From NCBI GenBank assembly GCA_964604685.1, contig CAZRZS010000002.1, positions 5,051-37,791 of the forward strand: a stretch of 32,741 nucleotides of DNA, written 5' to 3'. Numbering within the stretch: position 1 is the first letter of the stretch; every line of letters begins with the position of its first letter. The position numbers were made by a program, and so were the translations under genes. Below the pieces are notes generated by a model. That model saw nothing but the letters and a program-made list of their open reading frames with translations, searched no databases and was not told where the DNA came from. This stretch comes from an uncultured Gammaproteobacteria bacterium (GTDB lineage: Bacteria; Patescibacteriota; Patescibacteriia; Magasanikbacterales; UBA922). Positions 1,177 through 32,741 of this stretch are shown piece by piece.

Positions 1177-1758
1177 TTATTCGCCAAACCTCTTATACTC
1201 ATGAATCACATATTCTCTTCCGCCGAACCAGTGCTCAATCTCGTGCTTGGCTTCTTCAGCAGTTTCCGAGGCGTGAACAATGTTCATCACGGCTCGCTTT
1301 TCAGCGTTAGCAATGGCCGGAGAGTCATTGGAATAATCCCCGCGGATGGTGCCCATGTCCGCCAAATAAGGCAAAGTATTACCACAAATTTTACGCACCA
1401 TGTCAACCGCATGCACGCCTTCCACAACCAGCCGGATTAACGGAGCCGAGATCATATAATCAACCAGCCAGCCACGCACCATTTTGCCGATTTCCAAATC
1501 ACTGTCCGTGCCTAACTCTTTTTTCGCCTCAACGTCATATTTTTCATAAGTGGTAAGCGTCTTCTGGCCTAGACGGCGAATCCAGGTCTCATCTTTGGGA
1601 TAATGGTTGTCAATCTGCTCATGGTTGGGTTGGAACATTTCCAAAGCCACGACTTTCAAATCACGCTGTTCAAAACGACTAATTACTTCTCCAATTAATC
1701 CCTTCTTAACTCCGTCGGGCTTTATCATTACAAAGGTCTTTTCTTGTTTAAAATCCAT
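1177..1758 (-). CDS. ndk: Nucleoside diphosphate kinase, long form (193 aa)
   Basis: Has TFVMIKPDGV, GTIRGD and NIVHAS (catalytic His) motifs. An insertion of about 40 aa lies between the HY..K.. region and the LIRLVVEG strand, relative to canonical NDKs of about 140-150 aa. Confidence 0.92.
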   Translation of the reverse strand: MDFKQEKTFVMIKPDGVKKGLIGEVISRFEQRDLKVVALEMFQPNHEQIDNHYPKDETWIRRLGQKTLTTYEKYDVEAKKELGTDSDLEIGKMVRGWLVDYMISAPLIRLVVEGVHAVDMVRKICGNTLPYLADMGTIRGDYSNDSPAIANAEKRAVMNIVHASETAEEAKHEIEHWFGGREYVIHEYKRFGE

Positions 1759-1802
1759 ATATTTAAATATTATTTAAAAGTGGCCTCATTATATATTAAA
1801 AA

Positions 1803-4076
1803 TCAAAGTTTGTCAATCTCTTTTAAAAAACTCGTCCCCTCTTCTCTGACATATTCAACATCATCTTCATCATCCGACGGATCAGAAAATACTGTACCTC
1901 CGCCTATAGTATTCAAATCAATTAATTTTTTATCAATCTCATCCAAAAACATAGACGGACCTTGTAAATATCCGCCAAAACCGCCCATGAGTGGATAGGT
2001 AAGATGTAAATATTTTTTAGCCCGGGTGACTGCCACATAAAACAAACGGCGTTCTTCTTCTATTTCATGGCTACTCCTCACCCGTTCAATGGGAAATTGA
2101 CCTTGGGCCAAGTTTATGACAAAGACGGCGTCCCATTCCAAACCCTTGGCTTGATGGATAGTAGATAAAATCAACATTTCCTCTTTATTATATTCATTAT
2201 CTTGAACTTTTTTAGCATTGTAACTCTCGTGCAAACTAGCTTCAGCTAAAAACTGATTTAAATCCGGCTGGCGTTCGGCATACAAAGCCAATTGCTCTAA
2301 ATCTTGCAAACGTTCTCGATAATCTGGATATTCGTTTTCCAAATATTCTACGTATTTTGAATCCAAAATCTCCGCAATTAAATCACTCGGCTTCCCTCTC
2401 CTATGAGTGGAGGGCAGCCTGCCTGCCGGCAAGGCAGGGGTGTGGTCTGTCCGTTCCAAAACCCCCTCCTCACCTCCCCCTTGTAGGGGGAGGGAAATTA
2501 ATTTTTCATAAATCTGCAAAAAATCATTCCAACCCATTTGACCGCGAGCTGATAAATGCGAACCTAAATTAGCGAGGTCTTCAATATTGTCCAAATCTCT
2601 AACTTCCATGATAATCCTTTCAGCACTGACTGGGCCAATCCCCACTTGCATATTCAGCACCCGGCTCCAAGCCATTGCGTCAGCCAAATTATTTACAATT
2701 TTTAAATATGACAAAACATCTTTGATATGAGCACGTTCAAAAAAACGCAAACCACCGCGATAGTCATAGGGAATATCCCGCTTAGTCAATTCCATTTCTA
2801 AAGCTTGAGAGTGATAAGCGGCGCGAAAAAGCACAGACATCTTATTCATAGCCACACCTTCATCACGCAGTTCTAAAACACGGTCGGTTATAAACTGGGC
2901 TTCTTCCAAATTATCAGCAAAGGGATGGACTTCAGGTTTAATAAACTTTTCTTGCAAAGAAGAAAGATTTTTTTTGTACTGATTTAAATTATTAGCAATA
3001 ATATTATTGGCCAAATTTAAAATATCTGGAGTGGAGCGATAATTTGTTTCCAATTTAAAAATTTTAGCATTTTTATATTTTTTTTCAAAAGCTAAAATAT
3101 TTTGGATATCTGCCGCACGAAATGAATAGATGCTTTGGGCATCATCCCCGACTACTAACAAGTTTTGATGTTTTGAAGCTAATAAATCTATAATTGAAGC
3201 TTGAATTTTGTTAGTATCTTGATATTCGTCAACAAGAATATACTTAAATTGCTGGCTAAATTTATCTTTAATTTTAGGTGACTTAACTAAAAGTAAGTAG
3301 AGATTGACTAGCAAATCATCAAAATCCATGACATTGGCCTCAAGTTTTCTTTTTTGATAATCCTCGGCAATGCGTTTGATAACATCACCAATGGCTAGAA
3401 AATTGGGGTGCAGTAAATCCAAAGTATCTTCAATAGTAGTTTCAGCATTGCGCGCATAGGAGATGATTGCTTGCAAGACTTTGGGTGAAGGAAAACGTTT
3501 CTCTTTCCGATCAATCCCCTCCTGTTTTAAACAGAGCTTAAGTAAATCCAAACTGTCTTGGCTGTCTAAAATTGTAAATCCAGCACCAGAACTCGCTCCA
3601 CTCGTTTGGTGCTGGGCTGAATTATTTTTATAACCCAATAGATAGGCATACTGACAAAGAATTTTGTAGGCAATATGATGAAAAGTACCCGACCAAGGCA
3701 ATATTATCCCCCTCTTACCAATCACCGCCACAGCGGGACCCCGCCTCAAGGCGGTGGGAAGGGGCTCGGGGGGAGTTGCCGAGGTTCCATTTTCCCCCCC
3801 TTTAATAAAGGGAGGGTAGCCTGCCTGTCGGCAGACAGGGGGGAATTTTGGCAACAGTTTTTCTACTCTCTCAATCATTTCTTTGGCCGCTTTATTGGTA
3901 AATGTCACCAATAAAATATTTTCTGGACAGACACCTTGCTCTAATAAATAGGCCACGCGATAAGTAATGGTGCGCGTTTTGCCGCTCCCGGCTCCGGCCA
4001 AGACTAAACACGGGCCGTTTCCTTCAAAAACGACCCGCTGCTGTTCCAAATTTAAATCTTTTTGAAAATCAACCAT
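1803..4076 (-). CDS. uvrD: UvrD/PcrA-type superfamily 1 DNA helicase carrying three in-frame repeat insertions
   Basis: Walker A AGAGSGKT, TFTNKAAKEM, GTFHH, VDEYQDTN, VGDDAQSIYSFRAAD, ETNYRS and VAVTRAKK motifs appear in canonical order. GC-rich segments at about 3697-3850, 3580-3615 and 2391-2497 interrupt it without breaking the frame. Confidence 0.93.
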   Translation of the reverse strand: MVDFQKDLNLEQQRVVFEGNGPCLVLAGAGSGKTRTITYRVAYLLEQGVCPENILLVTFTNKAAKEMIERVEKLLPKFPPVCRQAGYPPFIKGGENGTSATPPEPLPTALRRGPAVAVIGKRGIILPWSGTFHHIAYKILCQYAYLLGYKNNSAQHQTSGASSGAGFTILDSQDSLDLLKLCLKQEGIDRKEKRFPSPKVLQAIISYARNAETTIEDTLDLLHPNFLAIGDVIKRIAEDYQKRKLEANVMDFDDLLVNLYLLLVKSPKIKDKFSQQFKYILVDEYQDTNKIQASIIDLLASKHQNLLVVGDDAQSIYSFRAADIQNILAFEKKYKNAKIFKLETNYRSTPDILNLANNIIANNLNQYKKNLSSLQEKFIKPEVHPFADNLEEAQFITDRVLELRDEGVAMNKMSVLFRAAYHSQALEMELTKRDIPYDYRGGLRFFERAHIKDVLSYLKIVNNLADAMAWSRVLNMQVGIGPVSAERIIMEVRDLDNIEDLANLGSHLSARGQMGWNDFLQIYEKLISLPLQGGGEEGVLERTDHTPALPAGRLPSTHRRGKPSDLIAEILDSKYVEYLENEYPDYRERLQDLEQLALYAERQPDLNQFLAEASLHESYNAKKVQDNEYNKEEMLILSTIHQAKGLEWDAVFVINLAQGQFPIERVRSSHEIEEERRLFYVAVTRAKKYLHLTYPLMGGFGGYLQGPSMFLDEIDKKLIDLNTIGGGTVFSDPSDDEDDVEYVREEGTSFLKEIDKL
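2409..2442 (-). repeat. Hairpin module B, copy in uvrD (site 2)
   Basis: Exact reverse complement of the 34-nt tgt copy. Confidence 0.9.
2456..2496 (-). repeat. Hairpin module C, uvrD copy (site 2)
   Basis: Reverse complement ttccctccccctacaagggggaggtgaggagggggttttgg aligns with tgt module C apart from a few substitutions. Confidence 0.85.
3580..3615 (-). repeat. Isolated 8-bp-stem hairpin inside uvrD
   Basis: ccagcacc (3580-3587) pairs with ggtgctgg (3608-3615). It encodes the extra residues QHQTSGASSGAG just before the FTILD motif. Confidence 0.55.
3727..3817 (-). repeat. GC-rich hairpin cluster in uvrD insertion site 1
   Basis: ccgcc-tcaa-ggcgg (3751-3764), ctcgg-N9-ccgag (3774-3792) and ccccccc-tttaataaa-gggaggg (3794-3817). 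It lies adjacent to the module B variant. Confidence 0.7.
3811..3843 (-). repeat. Hairpin module B variant, copy in uvrD (site 1)
   Basis: ggagggtagcctgcctgtcggcagacagggggg compared with ggagggcagcctgcctgccggcaaggcaggggtg. It is one nt shorter, so it is read in a different frame. Confidence 0.8.
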
Positions 4077-4103
4077 AGTCGCCTTATTTTACCATTAAAC
4101 TTC

Positions 4104-4970
4104 CTAATCCTCAACAACCAACACTACCCGCCTGCCCTCTTTCACGTTCCCATCGTTCCAATCATGAATGGCAAATAATAAATCCTGATAATAATAGGCA
4201 AAATTTTCTCCCCATTGGGTGCCAGGGTCATTGGTTATAAATTTCTCATCAGTATAACCGCGGATGATTAAAGCATGATATTCTGGCCCATCACCGCGAA
4301 AATACGGATTAGGCAAATCCTTGCCATGGGCTAAAACCAAGACTGGCTTGCCTGCAGTAATAAATTTTTTAATATCATCTATAATAGGATTTTCAATAAT
4401 TTTTAACCCCACCCTACCCTCCCCGGAACTTGTCCCGAGTTTCATCTCGGGAAGGGGAGGGGAAGGGAGGGGTTGCGCCAATTTTAGATACTCCTCCGCC
4501 ATTTGTTTCACTTTCTCCATCTCAATACTATTCCCCCACCCCTGCGCTTCTTCCCACTCCACCATTTTCAAAATTTCGTCACGAGAAAATAATGGACTTA
4601 GATTATAGTTTTTATAATAAGCGTCAAGCATTAAAACGGCCGCTTCTTCACAGGCATCTTGCCAGGGCTGTTCCCAATTTTTTTCCGGGGCTTGGGAGGT
4701 GAAGGGAACGGCGAGATTCACTGTGTCATTCCGAGCGAAATCCGAATGAAATGAGGATGTAGTCGAGGAATCCCTTTCAACCACTACACTAGTTTCTAAA
4801 TTTCCTAGTTTCTTAGTTTCTATATTATTTTCGTAGTTCGTAATCTCGCTTGTCCCGAGCGAAGTCGAGGAATCTTTCGTAGTTCGCACATAAATAAAAA
4901 TTGTCCCAAGCAAAAACAACCCGCTTAAAATAAGACAGGAGTAATTAAATATCTTGTATTCTTTCTTCAT
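4104..4970 (-). CDS. Membrane-anchored C39-like (YvpB/Peptidase_C39_2-type) cysteine peptidase
   Basis: N-terminal TM segment (CLILSGLFLLGTIFIYV). FTSQAPEKNWEQPWQDACEEAAVLMLDAY contains the Cys motif and HALIIRGY is the candidate His. It carries repeat modules in-frame. Confidence 0.75.
   Translation of the reverse strand: MKKEYKIFNYSCLILSGLFLLGTIFIYVRTTKDSSTSLGTSEITNYENNIETKKLGNLETSVVVERDSSTTSSFHSDFARNDTVNLAVPFTSQAPEKNWEQPWQDACEEAAVLMLDAYYKNYNLSPLFSRDEILKMVEWEEAQGWGNSIEMEKVKQMAEEYLKLAQPLPSPPLPEMKLGTSSGEGRVGLKIIENPIIDDIKKFITAGKPVLVLAHGKDLPNPYFRGDGPEYHALIIRGYTDEKFITNDPGTQWGENFAYYYQDLLFAIHDWNDGNVKEGRRVVLVVED
4417..4461 (+). repeat. Hairpin module A, copy in the peptidase gene (antisense to the gene)
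   Basis: Identical 45-nt string to 5384-5428. The minus-strand gene translates it as [15 protein letters not shown]. Confidence 0.9.
4725..4773 (-). repeat. Module E copy 1 (gtcattccgagcgaa...gtcgaggaatcc) in the peptidase gene
   Basis: Shares gtc..ccgagcgaa and gtcgaggaatc with copy 2 and has about 21 extra internal nt. It is translated as DSSTTSSFHSDFARND. Confidence 0.7.
4852..4874 (-). repeat. Module E copy 2 in the peptidase gene
   Basis: gtcccgagcgaagtcgaggaatc. It is flanked by the 12-nt direct repeat tttcgtagttcg (4829-4840 and 4875-4886). Confidence 0.7.
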
Positions 4971-4989
4971 ATCACCAGTGTATCAAGAA

Positions 4990-5018
4990 TTGATTTTTTT
5001 CGCAAAATACTCTAAACT
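4990..5018 (+). promoter_or_regulatory. Candidate tgt promoter (TTGATT-17-TAAACT) only 8 nt before the ATG
   Basis: TTGATT at 4990-4995, a 17-nt spacer and TAAACT at 5013-5018, with the ATG at 5027. No SD sequence is present. This implies a leaderless or nearly leaderless mRNA. Confidence 0.45.
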
Positions 5019-5020
5019 GA

Positions 5021-7094
<2,074 letters not shown>

Positions 7095-7104
<10 letters not shown>

Positions 7105-7122
7105 GCCGAAGCTCAGTTTTTT
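7095..7122. terminator. Bidirectional intrinsic terminator between convergent genes
   Basis: aaaaaa-CTGAGC-cgaa-GCTCAG-tttttt. The yhhQ stop codon lies in the 5' arm, and the minus-strand 71-aa ORF stop lies at the end of the T-run. Confidence 0.85.
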
Positions 7123-7336
7123 AATTCATTCCACCAAATTCTTTACCACCCGTCATCTGCCTCCATAATCTTTCTGCTTCTTCTCTATTTTTTGGGTTAG
7201 ACCTCTTTGATTGTTTTTCTCTTTTTTTAGCTTCAACTTCAAAACCTGAAGGATCAACTGATCTTAAACTACCTTTAGCACCTTCAGGTACCCCTCTTCT
7301 AACTGCCCCCTTATTATGCCAACCAATTACTGACAT
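7121..7336 (-). CDS. Small basic hypothetical protein (71 aa)
   Basis: ORF is bounded by terminators on both sides. It is Lys/Arg/Glu-rich and I recognise no family. Confidence 0.5.
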   Translation of the reverse strand: MSVIGWHNKGAVRRGVPEGAKGSLRSVDPSGFEVEAKKREKQSKRSNPKNREEAERLWRQMTGGKEFGGMN

Positions 7337-7380
7337 ATATTTATGGTTAATAATAAGTAATAAAAGTATAACATATTATT

Positions 7381-7409
7381 AAAAAAACCTCCAATAAGAA
7401 GGTTTTTTC
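7381..7409 (-). terminator. Intrinsic terminator closing the femAB-to-queA operon
   Basis: Minus strand reads aaaaaACCTTCttattGGAGGTttttttt. The stem contains a U-G pair that would be an A-C mismatch on the plus strand, which supports minus-strand function. Confidence 0.75.
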
Positions 7410-7418
7410 AATATCTGT

Positions 7419-7577
7419 TTAGGCTTCAGCTTCCTCATTAGTAGTTTCATCATCACTGCCAGCTGTTTCAGCAGGAGCTTCTTCACCACTTTCAGCTTCT
7501 GTTTCAGGAGCTGTAGTAGTAGCCTCTTCTTCGGTACCCTCATCAGTAACAGGGCCCATTGTTGTATCCTCATCCAT
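7419..7577 (-). CDS. Possible 52-aa highly acidic peptide (MDEDTTMGPVTDEGTEEEATTTAPETEAESGEEAPAETAGSDDETTNEEAEA)
   Basis: Hand translation of the minus strand; it falls below the ORF-track size cutoff. Its TAA stop lies 10 nt before the terminator hairpin, whereas the competing 64-aa frame reads through that hairpin. No SD sequence is present. Confidence 0.35.
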   Translation of the reverse strand: MDEDTTMGPVTDEGTEEEATTTAPETEAESGEEAPAETAGSDDETTNEEAEA

Positions 7578-7632
7578 AGAAAAGAAGATTAAGAATTAAC
7601 GGTCTATAGTTTATCACAGATTACTATTCTTG

Positions 7633-8703
7633 TCAAGATGTTATCAACATGCCATCCCCAAAGCTATAAAAACGATATTTTTCCTTTATTGCCTGCTGAT
7701 AGCAATGCAACATAAATTCCCTATTTCCCACAAAGGCAGAGACTAACATAAGCAGGGTGGATTTAGGCAAATGAAAATTAGTAATTAAGGCGTCAATGAT
7801 TTTAAATTGAAAACCTGGGGTAATAAACAAATTTATCTCGCCTTGATATGGTTCAAGTCTCTCGTCAGCATAGCCAGCCTGATGTGCCAGACCTTCCAAA
7901 GTACGCACAGTAGTTGTACCTACAACAATCACTCGTCTGCCTTCGCTCTTCGCCTGGTTTATAGCCATAGCTGTGCCAAAATTAAGCTCCACCCATTCAC
8001 TGTGCATCCGATGTTCTTCAATCTCTTCGCTTTTAACCGGCAAAAAAGTACCTAAACCCACATGCAAAGTAATTTCCGCTATTTCCACCCCCTTAGCTCG
8101 AATTTTCTCTATCAACTCTTTGGTAAAATGGAAACCAGCCGTGGGTGCGGCCACTGAACCTTCCTGCTTGGCATAGATAGTTTGATAATCAGCCAAATCT
8201 ACCGGCTGTTTTTTAATATATGGCGGTACAGGCACTTCGCCGCAGTTATTGGCTTTTTGTCGAACCACTTCATCATTATCTGAAAACTGAACTAAAATGG
8301 TGCCATCTTTTTCTTTCAACATAACATCGCAGTAAAAATCAGAAGCAAACTGCAGGCGTAGGCCATTTTGTACATGCCTACCGGGTTTAGCCAAAACTTG
8401 CCAAACCCCAAGGTTTTCCATCGGTCGAACTAAAAAGATTTCCACAGGCTTTCCATGTTCGCGCAATACCTCGCCTTCGGGAGTAATTAGCTGGCCATAT
8501 AACCGAGCGCGAAAAACTTTGGAATTGTTGCAAACTAATAAATCTCCGGTTTTTAGATAATCAAGGAAATCATAAAAATGACGGTGTTCCACCGTCTGAG
8601 TTGTTTTATTTACTACCATGAGGCGTGAGTGATCACGCGGCCATAGAGGCTCCTGGGCAATCAACTCTCTAGGTAGATTATAATCAAAATCTGCTGTTTT
8701 CAT
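7633..8703 (-). CDS. queA: S-adenosylmethionine:tRNA ribosyltransferase-isomerase
   Basis: N-terminus reads DFDYNLPRELIAQEPLWPRDHSRLMV. AAPTAGFHFT and GTTTVRTLE motifs are present, and the 356-aa length is typical. Confidence 0.92.
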   Translation of the reverse strand: MKTADFDYNLPRELIAQEPLWPRDHSRLMVVNKTTQTVEHRHFYDFLDYLKTGDLLVCNNSKVFRARLYGQLITPEGEVLREHGKPVEIFLVRPMENLGVWQVLAKPGRHVQNGLRLQFASDFYCDVMLKEKDGTILVQFSDNDEVVRQKANNCGEVPVPPYIKKQPVDLADYQTIYAKQEGSVAAPTAGFHFTKELIEKIRAKGVEIAEITLHVGLGTFLPVKSEEIEEHRMHSEWVELNFGTAMAINQAKSEGRRVIVVGTTTVRTLEGLAHQAGYADERLEPYQGEINLFITPGFQFKIIDALITNFHLPKSTLLMLVSAFVGNREFMLHCYQQAIKEKYRFYSFGDGMLITS

Positions 8704-9746
8704 AAATTTAAAAATTGCGCACGATTTCTATTATGGTTCTCTAAATTTTTAGCATATTTCACTTCACCTTCAGAAGTTGTCAGAAAATACCAGTCATTAT
8801 TTTTCTCTGGATAAATGGCCGCTTTGATTGATTCCAAGCTCGGATTGCAAATAGGTCCAAAAGGCAAGCCCGGATACTTATAGGTATTCCACGGTGAATT
8901 AAAATTACGCTCTTCTTGAGTAGTGAAAACATCACCAGTTTTACCTAAAGCATAGTGAACCGTGGAATCAGCTTGTAATGCCCAGTTCAAATCATAGCGG
9001 CGCCAAAAGATATCAGCCACCTTTTTCTTATCTTCCAACTCCTTCACTTCTTTTTCTAAAACAGATGCCATAGTTAAAACTTCATAAAATGTCCGCCCGC
9101 TTTTCTCCATGTCCTCCCACAGCTTATCTGTAATTTGATTCTCACGTTCTTGTAATAATCGCAAGATAATATCTGCGACTGTAGCATTTTTGTAAATGCG
9201 GTAGGTTTCTGGAGCTAAATAGCCTTCGTAGCTGGCAAACCATGGCTTATCTTCTAAAATTTTTAAATCTAAATCAATCTCTGGTGCAGACTCAGCCGCT
9301 AGCTTATAATTCACAGCCGGTAAACCCACATATTCAGTAATCTCTTCAGCTTGAAACCTGCCTTGACTTTCAAAATACATACTAATATCACGAATTGTCC
9401 AACCGGGAATAATCGTAATTGTGGCTTCACTTAAGCCAGGTTGACTGAGAGCCTTAGCCACGCGGGACAAAGTAATTGGCGCAACCACTTCAAACTCACC
9501 ATAATTTACTTTCTTATCCAAACCTTTGAAAATTAAATACTTTTTAAACAACCAGCTATTGCGGATAATTTGCTCCTCTTGCAAACGCGTAACTAAATCA
9601 CCCACTGACTCGCCTGACTTAACTTCAAAAACAACTTTATCCACGCCCTTCTGTGCTTCGGCTGTGTAGAGTTCCGAAAGAAAAAACCAGCCAGCAATAA
9701 CTAGGCAGGCAATAATAATCCCCAAAAGTATTTTGTTTAAATTCAT
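8700..9746 (-). CDS. mltG: Endolytic murein transglycosylase MltG (YceG-like)
   Basis: N-terminal TM segment, then ASVLEKE, ADSTVHYALG and NTYKYPGLPFGPICNPS motifs. It overlaps queA by 4 nt. Confidence 0.9.
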   Translation of the reverse strand: MNLNKILLGIIIACLVIAGWFFLSELYTAEAQKGVDKVVFEVKSGESVGDLVTRLQEEQIIRNSWLFKKYLIFKGLDKKVNYGEFEVVAPITLSRVAKALSQPGLSEATITIIPGWTIRDISMYFESQGRFQAEEITEYVGLPAVNYKLAAESAPEIDLDLKILEDKPWFASYEGYLAPETYRIYKNATVADIILRLLQERENQITDKLWEDMEKSGRTFYEVLTMASVLEKEVKELEDKKKVADIFWRRYDLNWALQADSTVHYALGKTGDVFTTQEERNFNSPWNTYKYPGLPFGPICNPSLESIKAAIYPEKNNDWYFLTTSEGEVKYAKNLENHNRNRAQFLNL

Positions 9747-13591: not shown

Positions 13592-13665
13592 GCGCCGCTA
13601 GCTCAGCTTGGTAGAGCAGTTGCCTCTTAAGCAAACGGTCCAGGGTTCGAATCCCTGGCGGCGCA
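13592..13665 (+). tRNA. tRNA-Lys (anticodon CTT)
   Basis: GCGCCGC / TAGCTCAGCTTGGTAGAGC / anticodon loop CT-CTT-AA / GGTTCGAATCC / GCGGCGC + A. It begins on the base immediately after the rnc TAA stop. Confidence 0.93.
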
Positions 13666-13677
13666 CTGCTTACCCCT

Positions 13678-13749
13678 GCCCCTGTGGTGTAATGGATAAC
13701 ACAACGGTCTTCGGAACCGTTGATCCGGGTTCGATTCCTGGTAGGGGCA
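13678..13749 (+). tRNA. tRNA-Arg (anticodon TCG)
   Basis: GCCCCTG / TGGTGTAATGGATAACACA / stem ACGGT, loop CT-TCG-GA, stem ACCGT / GGTTCGATTCC / TAGGGGC + A. Confidence 0.88.
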
Positions 13750-13750
13750 C

Positions 13751-13777
13751 AAAAAACGACCTTTGAAGGTCGTTTTT
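13751..13777. terminator. Bidirectional terminator shared by the rnc-tRNA unit and the pilus operon
   Basis: aaaaaa-CGACCT-ttga-AGGTCG-ttttt. A second minus-strand hairpin at 13803-13829 lies just after the last pilin gene. Confidence 0.85.
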
Positions 13778-13838
13778 AAAAAATGAAAGATTGGGCTTAA
13801 TTTATCCGCCCCATTTTTTACGGAGCGGATATATAAAT

Positions 13839-14330
13839 CTATCTTACAACTACAATCTGATCACTATTTTCTGATTCACAAGCATATACTGAAATTGCAC
13901 CTGTCGTACCAACTGACAAAGTATAACCAGTATAATTAGCAGACCAAATACCTTGACCATTTGGACTTGTTGGTATAGCGCCAAGGTAACCAGCTGTTTG
14001 TAAACCGGATAAATCAACACAAGTTGTATCACCAGTTACGTTGGTGTCACAATAAGCATTCTGGTCATCACATCCTATTGCGGCCGTGCCAATCATATAA
14101 ACATTACCAGCGCTTAAAGCTTGTATTGTCGCTAAATTATAACCACCATTGTCCACTTGATATAAATTAATTGCATGGGACAATTCGCTGATTTCTTGCC
14201 AGCGTACAGAGTCGCGTGAATCCTGAAAACGCGTTAAAGGATCCAAAGCGACAAAGACCACGGCTGCCAAAATTGCAATAATGGCAATCACAATCAAAAG
14301 CTCAATGAGCGTAAAACCTTTGTGCCTCAT
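13839..14330 (-). CDS. Type IV pilin, major-pilin-sized paralogue 2 (163 aa)
   Basis: MRHKG|FTLIELLIVIAIIAILAAV is a class III signal with Glu at +5. The C-terminal half has four Cys and shares the C.DL.GL...GYLG..P..P motif with the other pilins. Confidence 0.9.
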   Translation of the reverse strand: MRHKGFTLIELLIVIAIIAILAAVVFVALDPLTRFQDSRDSVRWQEISELSHAINLYQVDNGGYNLATIQALSAGNVYMIGTAAIGCDDQNAYCDTNVTGDTTCVDLSGLQTAGYLGAIPTSPNGQGIWSANYTGYTLSVGTTGAISVYACESENSDQIVVVR

Positions 14331-14361
14331 AAAGTTTTGGATTAAAAAATAAAATTATTTT

Positions 14362-14859
14362 TTATCTTGAAACGGAAATAGCACCAGTATTTTCTGATTC
14401 ACAAGCCTGAATTGTAATAATGCCTGTACTCGCTTTCTTCAAAGTATAACCTGTTATTGTCTCATCCCAAGTAGCATTACCTGTTGGACTGACAGGCACC
14501 GAACCAAGATATCCTTGACTGGCTAGACCAGTTAAATCTACACAGTCTGTAGTATTAATAATAGCCACATCACAATTTCCAGCATTATAAGCAGTATTAC
14601 AAGCAGAAACTGCCGTACCAATCATATAGACAGTATCATTCACCAAATTGCTAATGGCCATTAAATAATATCCACCATTATCGATTTGATTAATTTTAAT
14701 CGCCGACAATAAAGCGGTGGTATCTTGCCAGCGTGAAGCATCACGTGCATCCTGAAAACGCGTTAAAGGATCTAAAGCTACAAAGACCACGGCTGCCAAA
14801 ATTGCGATAATGGCAATCACGATTAATAATTCAATTAAAGTAAAACCTTTTCGTTGCAT
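14362..14859 (-). CDS. Type IV pilin, major-pilin-sized paralogue 1 (165 aa)
   Basis: MQRKG|FTLIELLIVIAIIAILAAVVFVALDPLTRFQD. The first 35 or so residues are almost identical to the downstream paralogue. Confidence 0.9.
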   Translation of the reverse strand: MQRKGFTLIELLIVIAIIAILAAVVFVALDPLTRFQDARDASRWQDTTALLSAIKINQIDNGGYYLMAISNLVNDTVYMIGTAVSACNTAYNAGNCDVAIINTTDCVDLTGLASQGYLGSVPVSPTGNATWDETITGYTLKKASTGIITIQACESENTGAISVSR

Positions 14860-14870
14860 ATAATTTTTAC

Positions 14871-16208
14871 TTAAAAATTAAAATTGCTACTTGTAACAGT
14901 TACAGCTTCAGTGGATGAAGACTGGACATTAAAATTAAATTCGGGAATTTGTTCTAATTGTTGTTGAATCTGTAAAGGCACATCTCTTACCTCTTGACTA
15001 TGCTGCCAAAATAAATAAGCAACCAATAAACCTCCAACTATTATAACTAACAATAAAATAATTAACAAAAGACGTGTGTGAGTTTTCTGTGCTTCTTCCT
15101 CTTGGCCTGATATCTTTTCCTCATCAATCACTAAATTGGTTTTTTTAGAAAGAGGCTTTTCTTCTTTTAAATCTTTAAGTATGGGTATGCTAGGATCAGT
15201 ACTTTCCCAATGATTGTGTAAACCTCGCAGGCCCAAGCCAATTGCCTCTATATACTCCAAAGGGACCTTTACATCTAGAGATTTGGCATTGCCAATTTGC
15301 ACCGGTAATTTAACATTCTCTTCTAAATATTTATTCAAACCTTTTAACTGGCTAGTGCCGCCAATTAAAACTAACTTTTGCACTTCCATTCCAGTTTGCT
15401 CTTTAAAATACTCTACTAAAGTTATAATTTCCTTACTTATTGTACTTAATTCTTTTTCCAGAGCTTTTACCACCAGTTTACTCTTACTTTTCAAGCCATC
15501 TTTAATTTTAGCCGCTTCCGCTTTCTTTTCATCTAATTTAACGGCTCCGGCCACGGCCGTCGTCAAATTGTTGCCAGCTATATTTATCACTTCTTCATAA
15601 TGTAATCCATTTTTGTCAAACACTGCTAAATAAGTAGTTGTAGCGCCCAGATCTACTAGGCAAACCGGCTCTTTGGGCAAAGTAGAAAACAAATCTCGAA
15701 AACTTGCCAAAATTTCTACATCTAAAAACTGCACCTCAAATTTATTTTTCTTAAAAAATCTCAACCACTCCTTAACCACATCTTTACTGGCAGCTGCTAC
15801 TAAAACCTCTGTCCCATCCTTTTTTTCTTCTAAAACCCGATAATCATAAACTAAACCATCTTCTACTAGTGGAATATTCTTTACGACTTCAGTTTTAATT
15901 AACTCTTCTCTTGCTTTCTTGCTATGCGCCGACAAAATAAAATTTCGTAGATAGACCTGGGATTCGGGCAAAGCAAAAATTATTTTTCTACCAGTTATGG
16001 CTCTTGGCTTGGCCATCTTAAATAATTGCTTTAAAGCCTGAGACAGTTTAATTTCATCTTTTATTCTGCCACGCTCAACTATACCAGCCTCCAATTTCAT
16101 CCGGCCTAAATTTTTTACCTTCACATGCAAACCAAAACCCTTCAACTCTGCCACCTCCATAGTCTGGTCAGCAATGTCCAAGCCAATGACTTTCTTAGTT
16201 AAAAACAT
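14871..16208 (-). CDS. pilM: PilM actin-like ATPase fused to a PilN-like transmembrane tail
   Basis: VIGLDIADQTMEVAEL, VDLGATTTYLAVF and LIGGTSQLKGL are sugar-kinase/actin-fold motifs. A C-terminal TM segment reads LLLIILLLVIIVGGLLVAYLFW. I prefer the ATG at 16208 (MFLTKK) over the track's TTG at 16232. Confidence 0.85.
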   Translation of the reverse strand: MFLTKKVIGLDIADQTMEVAELKGFGLHVKVKNLGRMKLEAGIVERGRIKDEIKLSQALKQLFKMAKPRAITGRKIIFALPESQVYLRNFILSAHSKKAREELIKTEVVKNIPLVEDGLVYDYRVLEEKKDGTEVLVAAASKDVVKEWLRFFKKNKFEVQFLDVEILASFRDLFSTLPKEPVCLVDLGATTTYLAVFDKNGLHYEEVINIAGNNLTTAVAGAVKLDEKKAEAAKIKDGLKSKSKLVVKALEKELSTISKEIITLVEYFKEQTGMEVQKLVLIGGTSQLKGLNKYLEENVKLPVQIGNAKSLDVKVPLEYIEAIGLGLRGLHNHWESTDPSIPILKDLKEEKPLSKKTNLVIDEEKISGQEEEAQKTHTRLLLIILLLVIIVGGLLVAYLFWQHSQEVRDVPLQIQQQLEQIPEFNFNVQSSSTEAVTVTSSNFNF

Positions 16209-16210
16209 AG

Positions 16211-16603
16211 TTAATTTTCTTCTTCCTGCCAAGAATTAAGGACAATAGTATCACCGTTTAAAGTGGCCTTGACTAACAATTTGTTATTATATTCACCCAC
16301 ACTGGCCGCTACTGCTATTGCTCGTTCAAAACCATTACTAGTTACTGATATTATACAGGAATTTTGGCCAATGTTCAAAGTCTCGCCGGAATAGTTTTCG
16401 TCTAAATACAAACGGCGTAAAGCTTCTTCGGCACAACCTTCAGCCAAAGCCTGTGCTTCATTACCTTTTTGTGAAGTCCAACCCATATCTAAATCACCCA
16501 AACCTAAAATAATAGCCGAAAAAGCCATTAACAAAACTGCCGTACTGACAATGACAATAGTCAGCAAAGCAACCATACCTCGTTTGTCTTTTACAACTAT
16601 CAT
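16211..16603 (-). CDS. PilX-like accessory pilus protein (130 aa)
   Basis: KRGMVALLTIVIVSTAVLLMAF hydrophobic N-terminus followed by AQALAEGCAEEALRRL. The same helix motif opens the 1116-aa protein. There is no Glu at +5. Confidence 0.6.
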   Translation of the reverse strand: MIVVKDKRGMVALLTIVIVSTAVLLMAFSAIILGLGDLDMGWTSQKGNEAQALAEGCAEEALRRLYLDENYSGETLNIGQNSCIISVTSNGFERAIAVAASVGEYNNKLLVKATLNGDTIVLNSWQEEEN

Positions 16604-16604
16604 A

Positions 16605-17117
16605 CTATTGTCTTAAGCTCACAGCTGTCTGCAGGCTCTGGTCATAGCTAAACTCAACATCACCGTCAAAATTATTAAACTCCACAGTTAAAGCAACTCC
16701 AATATTTTCTTTACTAGCTCCGCCTGTCAAATTGGTAAAAACTAAATTTGTCACCCTGACTTCATCACTCGTTATGGGTATAGCGCCACTTGTACCTTGA
16801 TTGATTTGTAATACCCCATCATCAACCGAAAGGTCAATAACTGTAGGATTTAAACTAATAGAAGCCATACTTAAAGACAAAACACCTGGATCTAAAGCAA
16901 AAGTTGAACTATCTAAATTAACCCCATTGGCCGCTTCTATCTTTTGACTGATTAAATCTAAAGCTACTCGTGCATTCGCCTGGACCTCCTGAACTACATA
17001 GGTTTTATTACGTGAATCAGAAATATGTAAAGCAAAACTGACAAATGCCAACATCACACCGCCAATTATGGTAATATATATCAAAGTTTCAATTAAGGTA
17101 AAGCCACGCTTATTCAT
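16605..17117 (-). CDS. Minor pseudopilin (PilW/GspJ-like, 170 aa)
   Basis: MNKRG|FTLIETLIYITIIGGVMLAF prepilin signal with Glu at +5. Confidence 0.8.
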   Translation of the reverse strand: MNKRGFTLIETLIYITIIGGVMLAFVSFALHISDSRNKTYVVQEVQANARVALDLISQKIEAANGVNLDSSTFALDPGVLSLSMASISLNPTVIDLSVDDGVLQINQGTSGAIPITSDEVRVTNLVFTNLTGGASKENIGVALTVEFNNFDGDVEFSYDQSLQTAVSLRQ

Positions 17118-17120
17118 ATT

Positions 17121-18059
17121 TTATTTGCTAAGCTGGATAATTTCCCCTCCTTCTGCGCCACAAGCTATGACCTGTAGTTGCCCGGCGGCCTGCTTTTTAA
17201 CTACATAATATGTTTGTTCAGCACTGCCTACCGAAGGATCAAAAGGTATAGTGGATAATTTACTACTTAAGGCCCCTGATAAATCTAAACAAGCAGTTTG
17301 TGTCTGCTGACCAGTACCTAAATTAATCTTAATAAAATAATCACCATTGTCATTAGTCCAACCAGTCTGTGAACCATCACCATTCAAACCACTGCGATAT
17401 TCAGGATCAGGACCGGTAGGACCAACTTCATCCATCAAAAACTTAACCGTGCCAGAACCATTATACAAAAGCAATTGCACAAAAAAATAATCCCCCAAAC
17501 TATTCTTATTAATATTATAACTATTGCTATACCAAGTGTAGTTACTGGTAGTGCTATCAGTCCTGATATTGGCAGCATCAACAAAATCATAATCAGTATA
17601 AGAAGAAGCATTGCCAATACGCAAACGTAACTGACCACTACAGCTGCCATCACAATCTAAAACTGCCGAAACTGTTAAAACGGAAAAATCACTCACTGCT
17701 GAAGCATTAAACCAATTACGCACTGTATAGGTGTTGTTAGAGTAATACTTTAAAGTCTGATTGGAATTGTGATAAGCAATGTCCATATTGCTTTCACCAC
17801 CACATCTCACATCACAACCACTGCCAGCCGTGCCTAACATTCTTAAACTGGTATCAATACCAGCTGGTAAAATCCCCCGCTGGTCAACTTGCTCTAAACG
17901 GATGGCATCAATAATAGAGTTAATATCATTCCAACGCCGAGAATTACGGGCGTCCTGAAAACGTTGCAAAGGATTAAGGGCAACAAAGACCACTGCCGCT
18001 AAAACAGCGATAATCGCAATCACGATTAATAATTCAATCAAAGTAAAACCTTTTTTCAT
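17121..18059 (-). CDS. Type IV pilin with an inserted central domain of about 190 aa (312 aa)
   Basis: MKKG|FTLIELLIVIAIIAVLAAVVFVALNPLQRFQD. The C-terminus CLDLSG...IPFDPS......TYYV......G.L.V.ACGAEGGE matches the C-terminus of the neighbouring 482-aa pilin. Confidence 0.88.
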   Translation of the reverse strand: MKKGFTLIELLIVIAIIAVLAAVVFVALNPLQRFQDARNSRRWNDINSIIDAIRLEQVDQRGILPAGIDTSLRMLGTAGSGCDVRCGGESNMDIAYHNSNQTLKYYSNNTYTVRNWFNASAVSDFSVLTVSAVLDCDGSCSGQLRLRIGNASSYTDYDFVDAANIRTDSTTSNYTWYSNSYNINKNSLGDYFFVQLLLYNGSGTVKFLMDEVGPTGPDPEYRSGLNGDGSQTGWTNDNGDYFIKINLGTGQQTQTACLDLSGALSSKLSTIPFDPSVGSAEQTYYVVKKQAAGQLQVIACGAEGGEIIQLSK

Positions 18060-18060
18060 A

Positions 18061-19509
18061 TTATCTTGTTACTTTTATTTCCTCCCCTTCTGCGGCACAA
18101 GCTTGGACATTAACTTGCCCGGTTTCATCGCGCTGCAAAGCATAATATGTTTTATTACTATCACCCAGAGAAGGATCAAAAGGTATTTGAGGTAAATGAG
18201 AGACTAAAATAGAACCTAGGTCAAGACAACTATCCACCAAAACATCACGACCCCCGCCAGCACTGGCTATTCCAACTGTCACACTTTTCAATATCGGACT
18301 ATAAACTGCCCGATCAGTATTAAAATTCACTTGATATTGAAAATATTGATTATCAGCCAAATTAGTTAAATTCAAAGCAGGCAAGCCAATTGTAGAATTA
18401 TTTAACTCTGTGTAATAGGTAGCAGCTGTACCATCAGGTCCGATAAATGATTCACCACTACAGGCATTGTCAGCACAAGAGCGGACTTGAAAACGTAGAC
18501 GATTAGCCCCCCGGCGATAATGAGACAAAACTTCATCTGGTGAAAGTGCACGGTTATAAATAGCGACCTCATCCATACTGCCGTGAAAATAACTATTTTG
18601 TTTACCTAATTGCACAGGTAGATTGTTGATATTAATATCCCAACTAACTGGTGAATCATCGATTAAGACCCCGTTGGCATATAAAGAAACTTTGTCATTT
18701 GCCTCAAACACACCAACTAGATGTGTCCATCCTGTACCTAAATAATATGGGCCAGAAGCAGCATAACCAGTATTATTGGCATTTCTGACGAAAAAATAGA
18801 CTGACCTAATTTTATGTAAACTCAAAGAAAAAGAACCACCTTTAGCATAACCTATACCCTTGGTTATTATGCCAGCATAAGAAACAGTTGGATTAGTTAA
18901 CTTTTTTACCCAAGCTTCAACAGTAAAATCACCAGACAAGTTTAGACTTGAAGCATTACCCGCATCTATGTAATCACTACTGCCAGCAAAACCTATCGCT
19001 CTATTGAATTTACCAGTTTGTCCGTAAAGACTACCATTGTATGTCCCTGCATTACCACTACCAGAACTATCAGTAATCGTCCCGGAAGTTTCATTTAAGT
19101 GGTAAAGTAACACATTGCCACTCATGTTGGCATTACCAGAGTTATAACTAGACTCACTTGCCTGATTATTAGGCAATTCTTTATAACTAGGTTGACTTGG
19201 ACTCCAATATAAAGTAGTCCAAGCACTCAAGGTGCTGGCAGAAAATATCTGCGAGGTATAGGTGCCACTTGTACCTGAAGCTAATTTAACTCCAGATTCT
19301 GTTCCGATCCACTGTGTATTAATATAACTGCCAGCATTTTGGTAAAGCCGTATAGCGCCGGCAATAGCATCCACATCTGACCAACGTTGGACATTACGCG
19401 TCTCCTTAAAACGCTGCAGAGGATTAAGAGCAACAAAAACCACTGCCGCTAAAACAGCAATAATCGCAATCACGATTAATAATTCAATTAAAGTAAAGCC
19501 TTTTTTCAT
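18061..19509 (-). CDS. Type IV pilin carrying a LamG/concanavalin-like lectin-fold domain (482 aa)
   Basis: Same prepilin N-terminus as the 312-aa pilin. The central region LYHLNETSGT..DSSG.GN.GT......G..G.A..F.G..DYI.....SL.LSGDFTVEAWV...SLYANGVL....FHGSMDEVAIYNRALS..EV is the Laminin_G_3 pattern (about nt 18505-19122). Confidence 0.88.
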   Translation of the reverse strand: MKKGFTLIELLIVIAIIAVLAAVVFVALNPLQRFKETRNVQRWSDVDAIAGAIRLYQNAGSYINTQWIGTESGVKLASGTSGTYTSQIFSASTLSAWTTLYWSPSQPSYKELPNNQASESSYNSGNANMSGNVLLYHLNETSGTITDSSGSGNAGTYNGSLYGQTGKFNRAIGFAGSSDYIDAGNASSLNLSGDFTVEAWVKKLTNPTVSYAGIITKGIGYAKGGSFSLSLHKIRSVYFFVRNANNTGYAASGPYYLGTGWTHLVGVFEANDKVSLYANGVLIDDSPVSWDININNLPVQLGKQNSYFHGSMDEVAIYNRALSPDEVLSHYRRGANRLRFQVRSCADNACSGESFIGPDGTAATYYTELNNSTIGLPALNLTNLADNQYFQYQVNFNTDRAVYSPILKSVTVGIASAGGGRDVLVDSCLDLGSILVSHLPQIPFDPSLGDSNKTYYALQRDETGQVNVQACAAEGEEIKVTR

Positions 19510-19512
19510 AAG

Positions 19513-22500: not shown

Positions 22501-22863
22501 TAAATAACTACCCGGACAATCTGTGATCTCATCATTCTCATCACGACAAACATCAGCAAAACTAATTGTCCGCGTATAATCCCCAATTGTCTCAGTAGTA
22601 CCCTCACCAGTTAAAGCCCAGGCCACACCAGAGACAAAAACCGAAGAAGTGGTAAAACGCAATTCATTCCAAGCTCTGTCACGAATTGCCCGCACTGCCT
22701 CTAAACCTTCCTGAGCTAAAGCCTGAGCTTCTGTTTGCTCACCACCTTGCTCTAAAGTGATAAAACCACCAGTTGACATTGACACCATAGCTGCGGCAAG
22801 CAAAGCAAAAATGGACATCGCTAAGATGACCTCTAATAAACTTTGTCCCCTGTTATTAAGCAT
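19513..22863 (-). CDS. Giant pseudopilin/adhesin (1116 aa) with Asp-box motifs and duplicated beta-sandwich modules
   Basis: RG|QSLLEVILAMSIFALLAAA prepilin-type N-terminus with Glu at +5. Four SxDxGxxW Asp-boxes: SNDNGATW, SNDDGATW, SEDSGASW and STDGGSSW. There is an internal duplication of about 90 aa. GGAGGAGG lies 5 nt upstream of the ATG. Confidence 0.88.
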   Translation of the reverse strand: MLNNRGQSLLEVILAMSIFALLAAAMVSMSTGGFITLEQGGEQTEAQALAQEGLEAVRAIRDRAWNELRFTTSSVFVSGVAWALTGEGTTETIGDYTRTISFADVCRDENDEITDCPGSYLDVHSKKVTSAVIWQVREGVTNTVQEVAYLTNWQTKLWPQTDWFGGKGQNIWSNSTRYSTGEDVIDNSVGEVTLAQTTDISASTTWPFELPENYTYSTSLIAVADGFAQLVGTAGGSGETLDDGFEYTIDDSYNWSFTTTSNYIYDTNSIEITSGMAQLKAEGGTIAIYPISSYSAPGVQSWNSFIETAVKNGGEIYYQLSNDNGATWQYWTGSAWDTAGVANYNTASVVNTSIFSFSTSSEQIKFRAFLTSDGSQQVQLDNLVIGFTPSTPVWSFSTWDVGGEEVTPSGAIQISGGDSDSYAEISVLAGNNDEVGGYWQQSFTTTEENPQVTIDFDYKAFVFNGIPNFSQIRVYLDMTSGDPVNQIGTIVNVAATGDWTAVPQIDASSLATTPGTYYLKLAYWLETPSGEGAGPFTVGFDNVNLVWQAASYDSNKPVISNSSSFMPTALNSWTGFVETAVKNGGEIYYQLSNDDGATWQYWDGDSWELAEAEDYNTASVVNSAILYFDTTAKKFMFKAFLASDGTQLVKLDNIDLTYNVASVTYYGNRFIVSSVDGVGSLSNSAYTISLRFTATNSKEVSALRFYLQEERGTSPTYRYGLQADNEGEPSGIWLGNNNQGYGDYQATATGWQTITLNENVSLNQDTVYHLVIEHQTGTINGGNNIELRRSQPLNLLHAFDGSADRQSNILFSEDSGASWLIQNHQPIYILEFSDGSYEGNPYETSEEHQIYGANYFGQQFTPAKDTIISSVGINVSENDQGPEADLILSLYNVTDNLLLATTTLTTLDQITNGVYAWQEFYFTSPLTLTAGKIYRIYISSPEADETVYYIIRSESHLDDFALNSINYGYISSFYVVSTDGGSSWDTSGLNQDLAGFRFQQTIFSSLGYIISSAFNEGSPTAFTVIEWDQETPSCSPNCEVKLQIKTAPDNEGVPGVWSATWSGPQGEDGDETDYFTKNTGELINPDNNQQWIRYKASLFGDSINTPTLQKTRIYYH
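20893..21168 (-). repeat. Internal duplicated module Y2 of the giant pilin (aa about 566-657)
   Basis: SWTGFVETAVKNGGEIYYQLSNDDGATWQYW...DYNTASVVN...FKAFLASDGTQLVKLDNI. Confidence 0.85.
21706..21978 (-). repeat. Internal duplicated module Y1 of the giant pilin (aa about 296-386)
   Basis: SWNSFIETAVKNGGEIYYQLSNDNGATWQYW...NYNTASVVN...FRAFLTSDGSQQVQLDNL aligns with Y2, 810 nt away. DNA similarity is visible (ttgataatatatttctcccccgttttt in both). Confidence 0.85.
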
Positions 22864-22864
22864 A

Positions 22865-23335: not shown

Positions 23336-23337
23336 AA

Positions 23338-24423: not shown

Positions 24424-24438
24424 AAAAAATAATTAATT

Positions 24439-32342: not shown

Positions 32343-32741
32343 TTATCGCCTATACACTACCAACGTTTCTCTGGCCAATTTCTCTCCTGAATATCGCTTT
32401 AATTCCTCTGGCGCTTTTATACTCAAATCATATCTGACATCTTCATTTGTTAAACCAGTCTGAATAACTTCAGCCATCTGCTCAAAATTTTCCGGATCAA
32501 AATATATGGCAGCTTCACCGAGAATTTCCGGCAAACATGAACTGTTGGAAGAGGCCACAGGCACACCATAGGTCATAGCTTCTAAAGGAGGCAGGCCAAA
32601 ACCTTCATACAAACTAGGAAAAACATACAACTTCGCTTGTTTATACAATCCCACTAATTCCTCATCAGAAACAAAGTCAGTGAACACAACGTTTCCTCCC
32701 CTTCCCGAGATGAAACTCGGGACAAGTTCCGGGGAGGGCAG
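32343..32741 (-). CDS. GT4-family glycosyltransferase, C-terminal part; the 5' end runs off the window through a repeat module
   Basis: FPSLYEGFGLPPLEAMTYGVPV is the GT-B/GT4 EX7E region. The frame stays open upstream of the track's GTG start (32687) for all 18 remaining codons ([18 protein letters not shown]). Confidence 0.85.
   Translation of the reverse strand: MPSPELVPSFISGRGGNVVFTDFVSDEELVGLYKQAKLYVFPSLYEGFGLPPLEAMTYGVPVASSNSSCLPEILGEAAIYFDPENFEQMAEVIQTGLTNEDVRYDLSIKAPEELKRYSGEKLARETLVVYRR
32695..32738 (-). repeat. Hairpin module A, copy in the glycosyltransferase gene
   Basis: Reverse complement of module A. It is followed at the window edge by cag, which reverse-complements to ctg, the same module B junction (ggctgccctcc) seen in tgt. 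Confidence 0.88.

Follow-up and report, generated by a model that had tools for sequence, protein, structure and literature searches.

Repetitive extragenic palindromic sequences (REPs) are found inside genes as well as between them, over half of the intragenic ones as dimers encoding 20–30 aa, and they are in excess in replication and repair genes, those of UvrD/Rep helicases included, where loops or linkers are suggested to accommodate them (Di Nocera et al. 2013, PMC3733652). The classic in-frame palindromic elements are the Rickettsia palindromic elements (RPEs), as outlined by Ogata et al. 2000, 2002 and in the review PMC10969869. How does a quite different bacterium compare? The subject here is a segment, at a position termed site 2, of the uvrD/pcrA helicase gene of an uncultivated Patescibacteria (candidate phyla radiation, CPR) bacterium, a Magasanikbacterium by its best protein matches (Candidatus Magasanikbacteria), and the DNA analysed is a 32,741-nt stretch of its contig CAZRZS010000002.1, henceforth the window. 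With a probability of roughly 0.8 the segment is a non-autonomous GC-rich palindromic selfish repeat, REP/REPIN-like in its build and RPE-like in its behaviour, that inserted in uvrD and is transcribed and translated within the helicase. Protein-coding palindromes were reportedly called unique to Rickettsia in a 2002 paper on that genus.

The site-2 segment is a genuine insertion and real DNA. The closest relative (L001) provides a syntenic contig with tgt, a gene for a C39-like peptidase, uvrD and ndk in the same order, and its UvrD (P0002) is 81% identical in amino acids to that of the window. Seven insert sites were recognised in the window, three in uvrD, one in the C39-like peptidase gene, two in tgt and one in a GT4 glycosyltransferase gene; L001 is without the site-2 segment and without the five others in uvrD, the C39 gene and tgt. 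At site 2 itself, 35 codons of the window replace 6 of the sister (...KMLEVKEKT/PTELI...), a net gain of 29. Is it then the sister that is peculiar? Of 120 Magasanikbacteria orthologues, 116 have no insert of any kind at site 2 and just 4 have one. A separate ENA MEGAHIT contig (L003) corresponds to window positions 1749–9238 (7.5 kb) and has all six inserts with a single mismatch, which rules out a one-off chimera. Over the 120 orthologues, insertion hot spots lie after P0002 residues 75–77, 107, 206, 271–274, 435, 448, 470 and 537, and every one of them, when mapped onto AlphaFold2 secondary structure, is at a helix end or in a loop.

What is the consequence for the protein? The matches of the window's UvrD in the PDB are PcrA and UvrD, and HMMER alignment to 1pjr puts site 2 between PcrA residues 436 and 481, which by the published domain boundaries is domain 2B. 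An AlphaFold2 model derived from 82 orthologues (mean predicted local distance difference test, pLDDT, 83; predicted template-modelling score 0.79) gives residues 528–562, the G/P/R-rich peptide that comes from the element, as coil with pLDDT ~50–54, between helices 510–527 and 563–571, with block pLDDT >90. Compared with apo PcrA (1pjr) and apo UvrD (3lfu), the model has template-modelling scores, normalised to the target, of 0.82–0.83, so far as a model can tell with the helicase fold intact despite the insert. The segment is accordingly predicted to be in a surface loop of 2B, compatible with the fold, where it would add a disordered loop, rich in Gly, Pro and Arg, that joins two helices of that regulatory domain, most likely with little or no effect on helicase function. 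Read-through UvrD should have LISLPLQGGGEEGVLER and another of 11 residues among its junction-spanning peptides. An earlier interpretation of the bare letters, here the sequence-only reading, had put an in-frame insertion in the 2B region of uvrD, and it fared well on several counts: the alignments run have no homologous loop in L001 or in the 116 orthologues, the HMMER alignment and the AlphaFold2 model agree on 2B, and the assembly chimera that it had considered finds no support in the L003 match. The inserted block that it delimited is real, with bounds of 2391–2495 (105 nt, 35 codons) in place of 2391–2497.

The site-2 stretch is 63–64% GC as against 38.6% across the window, and folding of 121 nt there gives z = −3.5 as RNA and −3.1 as DNA. 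Within the insert no terminator-like site was found on the sense strand, the sole one being antisense, and a cmscan of 2200–6400 gave no Rfam family above the gathering score, only sub-threshold matches to miRNA-like hairpins. On the plus strand of the window the layout is H1, then B where present, box L, a 12-nt spacer, box R and C1 (coordinates are in the table below). In the minimum-energy fold C1 forms a 9-bp stem, and boxes L and R pair with each other. The unit consists of a hairpin with C-run and G-run arms and of a tail of the GGGTGGGGTT type, B being an extra palindrome nested between H1 and L, and the whole reads as an inverted doublet of such 'hairpin plus tail' units, i.e., a REPIN or BIME (bacterial interspersed mosaic element) layout. 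The copies in the C39 gene and tgt start with AACCCCACCC and end with boxes of the GG(G/A)AGGGGGTT type; the same boxes are internal, as L and R, in the uvrD composite.

As the sequence-only reading had it, 2409–2442 is the exact reverse complement of tgt 5356–5389, and the 11-residue peptide that B encodes is identical in UvrD and Tgt; the repeat reaches 38 nt at 97%. The reversal reflects no more than the opposite strands of uvrD and tgt: along the coding strands the two copies of B agree in orientation and frame. Module C (2453–2493) is 88% complementary to the tgt copies at 5442–5481 and 5517–5557. With shuffles of the window sequence as the measure of chance, the patterns of B and of C1 are each expected 0.00 times; the window has three copies of C1, three of module A, and two of B plus one B' variant, and between distant loci within it there are exact identities of 34–50 nt. 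B is gained or lost as exactly 21 nt, being present in tgt, in a glycosyltransferase gene from another sample (L124) and at uvrD site 2, and absent from the C39 copy, which is otherwise identical, and from the uvrD copy of another Magasanikbacterium (L125), with which the window element aligns with a 21-column gap at B. The mosaic of modules proposed from the letters stands: tgt has the same parts in the permuted order L-B-A-C1-R. So does the degenerate ccctc/gaggg hairpin, with a loop of 11 nt and not 10. Repeat modules C and B shared with tgt were likewise rightly seen; it is their separateness that does not hold, as C, the 'VLERT' stretch, B and H1 occur as one composite in L125 and in a further locus, L066, and the insert is better described as one composite element than as C plus B. 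Two insertions around a native 'VLERT' remnant were considered, the VKEKT of the sister having three identical codons, and rejected because the copy in L125 has the central stretch at another site. The spacer varies between the window and L125 copies and is therefore the element's own, with no native remnant.

The L125 copy deserves description. In the uvrD of this GW2011_GWC2_37_14-like Magasanikbacterium the same composite, without B, is 54 aa upstream, after ERIIEKIM, as TCCCTCCCCCTACAAGGGGGAGGAGAGGAGGGGGTT TCGGACGAGACA AACCCCACCCC A CCCTCCCCTCATAGGGGAGGG AAC, in the same frame and with the peptide SLPLQGGGEEGVSDETNPTPPSPHRGGN; its H1 stem is intact, CCCTCCCC-TCAT-AGGGGAGGG. The alignment is end to end except for the B gap and 73 of 83 positions are identical (88%), as compared with 68.7% for the two host uvrD genes and 49% at their third codon positions. 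The 10 nt differences produce 8 aa changes and leave the C1 stem untouched. In L066 (Magasanikiibacteriota UBA12086) the order of parts is again the same, and there the element is intergenic, downstream of an M16 peptidase gene, which suggests that the composite is mobile as a unit. A metagenome scan with a 26-mer of module A found one locus, L124, a JGI contig, where near-identical B+A specifies 25 residues of the glycosyltransferase.

Is it DNA or peptide that is being propagated? Module C is read in different frames, giving LPLQGGGEEGV in uvrD and a 12-residue peptide in tgt, and either orientation of modules A and B is translated, the opposite one in C39 and in the L124 glycosyltransferase. 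Such readings point to a DNA element and not a protein module. Three of the six frames of the site-2 element have stop codons. Nevertheless, each of the window's seven intragenic copies keeps the reading frame, brings no stop and has a length divisible by three; for the lengths alone, were the inserts independent, the chance is, by our own arithmetic, ~(1/3)^7 = 5e-4. The pattern looks like the signature of purifying selection on random insertions. In four related loci, too, the C/G-run hairpins assigned to gene interiors leave every ORF (open reading frame) uninterrupted.

By what route could such copies have arisen? They would do so at the DNA level, by a mechanism leaving no recognisable target-site duplication. 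The best guess for a mobiliser is a hairpin-recognising single-strand transposase of the RAYT (REP-associated tyrosine transposase) or IS200-IS605 type acting in trans; a Y1/RAYT-type single-strand enzyme would, speculatively, fit both the hairpins and the missing target duplications. A guess at another route of copying is template switching or gene conversion between copies, and that might also explain the 4-kb clustering and the nesting of newer modules in older ones. In a compact low-GC genome selection would then purge copies that break the frame, bring stops or disturb folds, and the survivors would be stop-free copies, multiples of three in length, in surface loops; we infer that a filter on survival of this kind (frame, stop, loop) has acted on the copies. 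Elements would also have come to lie on or within one another, and this would account for the mosaic 'modules' as well as for hot spots that recur. At the six sites for which L001 has empty counterparts no target-site duplication was seen, in a comparison where, at 77% nucleotide identity, duplications of 1–2 nt could escape. No target motif is evident, the left flanks of both uvrD composites being GAAAAA(T)T(A)AT-like in what are two cases only.

Several considerations weigh against the selfish-repeat interpretation. No transposase or RAYT gene was found in the window by Pfam, which gave no insertion sequence there either, or among the called genes of L001, L125, L128, L129 and L130, the related sequence covered for a RAYT coming to roughly 130 kb; with neither a GTAG or CGTC tag nor a target-site duplication found in addition, the mobilisation step is pure inference. 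Read-through translation is deduced from frame conservation and not from observation. Six of the seven sites fall within 4 kb, and none of the mechanisms proposed specifically predicts such clustering. Furthermore, the similarity to proteobacterial sequences, dealt with below, is of 36–38 nt of low-complexity C/G runs at 89–92%, for which descent as against convergence is unproven.

What else could the segment be? The GC-rich inserts of Magnusiomyces mitochondria known as byps are bypassed by ribosomes, and T4 gene 60 is decoded likewise. If the uvrD insert were skipped in that way, or removed by RNA excision, the mature helicase would be without the 35 residues. Its GC-rich hairpins form a cluster with strong structure inside AT-rich coding sequence (z = −3.5), a superficial likeness to byps. 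However, bypassed or excised inserts need no frame, yet the seven window copies keep theirs and are free of stops, and hairpins within the genes of the four related loci never break ORFs, all of which argues against bypassing or excision and makes either very improbable. Take-off and landing codons, and intron-like features, are not evident at the insert, no search having been aimed at them. Alternatively, might the hairpins have arisen in place, by quasi-palindrome or template-switch mutagenesis or by slippage in G/C runs? The modules do consist of simple C-run/G-run arms and (GCCT)n-like palindromes, with no target duplication visible. The exact 34–50 nt identities at distant loci, the 83-nt composite at another site in the uvrD of L125 and the near-identical B+A in L124 from another sample nevertheless mean that a template was copied, and an origin in place is highly unlikely.

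The 2B domain controls the activity of UvrD, Rep and PcrA, which would favour an exapted addition to it, e.g., a new interaction or autoinhibition loop, with the peptide under selection. Four lineages have inserts at the site-2 loop, and REP inserts are in excess in repair genes (PMC3733652). Against this, the peptide is unconserved relative to that of L125 while the hairpin stems are kept, the same DNA gives unrelated peptides in other frames and orientations of unrelated enzymes, the closest relative works without the insert, and AlphaFold2 predicts disorder; we consider an adaptive loop improbable. Hardly any weight attaches to an artefact of assembly or binning, i.e., a repeat-induced chimera of uvrD fragments. 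Repeats are often at contig ends in metagenome-assembled genomes (MAGs), so assembly is disturbed there, but here uvrD continues collinearly and in one frame on either side of the insert, L003 reproduces all six inserts, Magasanikbacteria genomes that were deposited independently have a homologous composite, and the gene for the orthologue P0049 is on 9 contigs.

Table. Positions in the window of the host gene, the parts of its site-2 element and the other insert sites.
Feature	Position	Strand	Description
uvrD/pcrA helicase gene	1803..4076	minus	ORF, 757 aa; all conserved helicase motifs, gene intact
Site-2 composite element	2391..2495	minus	105 nt, 35 codons, residues 528–562, in frame
Hairpin H1	2394..2414		degenerate stem CCCTC (2394–2398) / GAGGG (2410–2414), 11-nt loop
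Module B	2416..2436		nested 21-nt palindrome AGCCTGCCTGCCGGCAAGGCA, boundaries ±2 nt; encodes ALPAGRL
Box L	2437..2447		GGGGTGTGGTC; GGGGTGGGGTT in other copies; complementary to box R
Spacer between half-elements	2448..2459		12 nt; encodes part of 'LERT'
Box R	2460..2469		AACCCCCTCC, reverse complement of GGAGGGGGTT
Hairpin C1	2473..2493		CCTCCCCC-TTGTA-GGGGGAGG; core of module C
uvrD site 1b	3579..3620	minus	14-codon hairpin insert SAQHQTSGASSGAG; stem CCAGCACCA / TGGTGCTGG
uvrD site 1	3708..3845	minus	46-codon GC-rich nested-hairpin cluster including B' CCTGCCTGTCGGCAGACAGG at 3820–3839
Element in C39-like peptidase gene	4405..4474	minus	AACCCCACCC, module A, GGGAGGGGTT, without B; opposite orientation, 15-residue peptide
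tgt site 1	5351..5557	plus	L, B, A, C1, R, then 75-nt partial tandem duplication; +69 codons
tgt site 2	6101..6178	plus	three C-run/G-run hairpins; net +21 codons
Module A copy in GT4 glycosyltransferase gene	32692..32741	minus	in frame, 16-residue peptide; gene passes window end

Some features of the other sites are worth recording. At uvrD site 1, where residues 87–120 have pLDDT <50 in the AlphaFold2 model, the core ACCTCGGCAACTCCCCC...AAGAGGGGG (peptide TSATPP) is homologous to L125 10240–10290 at the same site, with extra nested hairpins in the window copy; L001, the closest sister, is empty there. A core shared with the more distant L125 and not with L001 means either that the insert was lost precisely or that the spot was hit more than once. 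At the position of site 1b the orthologues P0046, P0070 and P0072 have similar inserts. Another palindrome family, with peptides of the SAQGGSALGG type, occupies one uvrD loop in seven Magasanikbacteria orthologues, after P0002 residue 271 in P0006, P0045, P0049, P0105 and P0117 and after 274 in P0046 and P0088; its DNA in L125 is TCTGCCAAAGACGGATCCGCTTTTGGCGGA. The tandem duplication in tgt comprises 5419–5481 and 5494–5556, 98% identical, and the sole mismatch between the window and L003 (window 5462) falls in it. Six of the seven insert sites are in three adjacent genes (2391–6178), and the six comparable genes downstream, from Vut_1 to FemAB (~5.5 kb), have no inserts. The product of ndk (1177–1758) is 193 aa, where every related locus has 159 aa, and its identity to that of L001 is only 41%; its extra segment is internal, ~30 residues, and AT-rich, not a GC-rich module. 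In L125 a B-like hairpin, AAGCCTGCCTGCCGGCGAGGCAGGTT, is at 15438–15463, 10 nt past the ndk stop codon in a terminator-like position, and in L128, from a related Magasanikbacterium, a gene with Pfam 23S_rRNA_IVP / bAvd matches adjoins ndk (13644–13988). Further along the window is a type IV pilus cluster (13839–26136) with a PilM-like protein, several N-methyl pilins, one of them of 1116 aa with DUF4082, PilC/T2SSF and PilB/T2SSE; a PAS histidine kinase and a response regulator follow.

How far does the family extend? A scan of species-representative genomes with a pattern for the core of B matched at least 120 of them, in Bacteroidota, Thermodesulfobacteriota, Omnitrophota, Planctomycetales, Nitrospirae, Gammaproteobacteria and many CPR groups. 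Among the 123 matches listed, ~100 are within 50 codons of the end of the ORF that spans them and so are mostly intergenic or at gene ends; a few of those listed are clearly intragenic, e.g., that in ribosomal protein S6 of a Daviesbacterium (L006). In that Candidatus Daviesbacteria locus B is alone and in frame at 3380–3402, in an S6-like ORF (...SDGLPAGRQGEIFKEDLWG...) whose identity was judged by eye. At ~25 loci from several phyla an H1-type hairpin directly precedes B and GGTGAGG or GGTGGGG follows it, with a stem sequence that varies by locus. In L085 (~5571–5593), L104 (~2864–2886) and L058 (~5885–5908), B is followed by the T-arm-like sequence GGTTC(G/A)A(A/G)TCCC and may be the long variable arm of a tRNA. 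Some cross-phylum matches of B would therefore be unrelated uses of a strong hairpin.

For the other half-element, a blastn search of PLSDB found R+C1 at 89–92% in complete isolate genomes, at 40 or more places in Photobacterium sp. GJ3, in Rahnella spp. and in Aeromonas. The H1-L-spacer-R-C1 layout in Rahnella is between genes, ~49 nt downstream of fhuE, and in the unannotated pGJ3-1 of Photobacterium sp. GJ3 (L131 2110–4335) ~15 tandem units of 141 nt have it, in the manner of a BIME-2 cluster. The relatives in Rahnella and L066, like most of the GTDB matches listed, are intergenic. Contamination was considered as the source of the cross-phylum matches of module C and fails, because the Photobacterium and Rahnella genomes are complete ones from isolates; for individual MAG matches of B it is possible. 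Viral contigs yielded two matches of B and none of module C, and a phage GenBank collection just chance-level ones of 24–30 nt; phages are not an obvious reservoir. The matches indicate that the family is private neither to the host genome nor to its phylum, and from its architecture common descent of the module across phyla is likely, not proven. A bolder proposal, which we hold only tentatively and think rather unlikely, is of a cosmopolitan GC-rich hairpin family, with a CCCTCCCC/GGGGAGGG-type hairpin, a GGGTGGGGTT tail and, with or without it, the 21-nt palindrome GCCTGCC(T)TGCCGGCAGGCAGGC, that spreads across phyla or via a universal host process and not by a lineage-specific RAYT. Gammaproteobacteria, Bacteroidota, Omnitrophota, Thermodesulfobacteriota and many CPR lineages would on that proposal share the conserved architecture, and the family would be a regular source of new disordered loops in CPR core enzymes.

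With the selfish-repeat interpretation, protein-coding palindromes extend to core genes, those for UvrD, Tgt, a C39-like peptidase and a glycosyltransferase, of a Patescibacteria/CPR bacterium, and the 120 Magasanikbacteria UvrD orthologues have such inserts recurring at a few loop hot spots. There are practical aspects as well. The inserts lengthen proteins by 10–25%, create spurious shared peptides between unrelated enzymes, split Pfam matches (TGT and NDK are each in two stretches in the window) and lie at contig ends in MAGs. The family is also a natural experiment on which helicase loops tolerate 30–50 extra residues. If shared descent is true, an architecture common to distant phyla would challenge the species or genus specificity of REP-like families.

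How then does the locus compare with described systems? The literature search found no report of in-frame palindromes in CPR/Patescibacteria, nor of the B or L sequences. The elements here and the intragenic REP dimers are alike in being short palindromes, often inverted dimers, mostly intergenic with a fraction in ORFs. The window has hairpins of 20–45 nt (H1, C1, A, B) in several copies, with inverted pairing around a 12-nt spacer. In contrast to GTAG/CGTC REPs, there is no tag by the stem, the stems are of C-runs and G-runs, a 21-nt palindrome is nested within, and the host is a Patescibacterium; the only GTAG is in the loop of C1 in uvrD, the tgt, Photobacterium and Rahnella copies having none, and there is no terminal GTAG or CGTC. 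REPINs and BIMEs likewise have two inverted units separated by a short spacer, a mosaic build and tandem clusters, for which the Photobacterium 141-nt array is the counterpart. Those, however, lie outside genes, are each confined to a species or genus and go with a RAYT gene, whereas here all seven window sites are inside ORFs and the family is apparently cosmopolitan. The absence of target-site duplications at the six sites comparable with L001 is unlike a miniature inverted-repeat transposable element (MITE), and the in-frame, stop-free state of all copies is unlike bypass elements.

Mobile GC clusters of yeast mitochondrial DNA (e.g., in var1) are, like the segment, small GC-rich palindromes carried by a compact AT-rich genome, occasionally in frame in genes, and polymorphic among relatives. 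The same likeness extends, as those reports present them, to coding palindromes, or MITEs, in Coxiella (QMITE, PMC5896051) and in Nematomorpha mitochondria (PMC6649704). The genomes and sequences of the yeast, Coxiella and Nematomorpha elements differ from those here, with nothing in these accounts pointing to shared ancestry. In behaviour the segment and its counterparts correspond to RPEs: both are palindromic selfish DNA in frame in many housekeeping genes that are unrelated to one another, within a small AT-rich genome; in each case the fold accommodates the insert and orthologues are empty, as are the six sites in L001, the predicted loop position of the insert being likewise fold-compatible. 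RPE-1, though, is ~100–150 bp, AT-richer, specific to Rickettsia and conserved in its peptide reading, whereas the Magasanikbacterium elements are GC-rich mosaics of 20–50-nt hairpins, read in several frames and both orientations, with relatives in other phyla. Judged by description, ~60% GC and modular hairpins in a Magasanikbacterium argue against membership of RPE-1 to RPE-10. What uvrD site 2 and its counterparts represent is a new family, in a new lineage, within the already described category of intragenic palindromic repeats.

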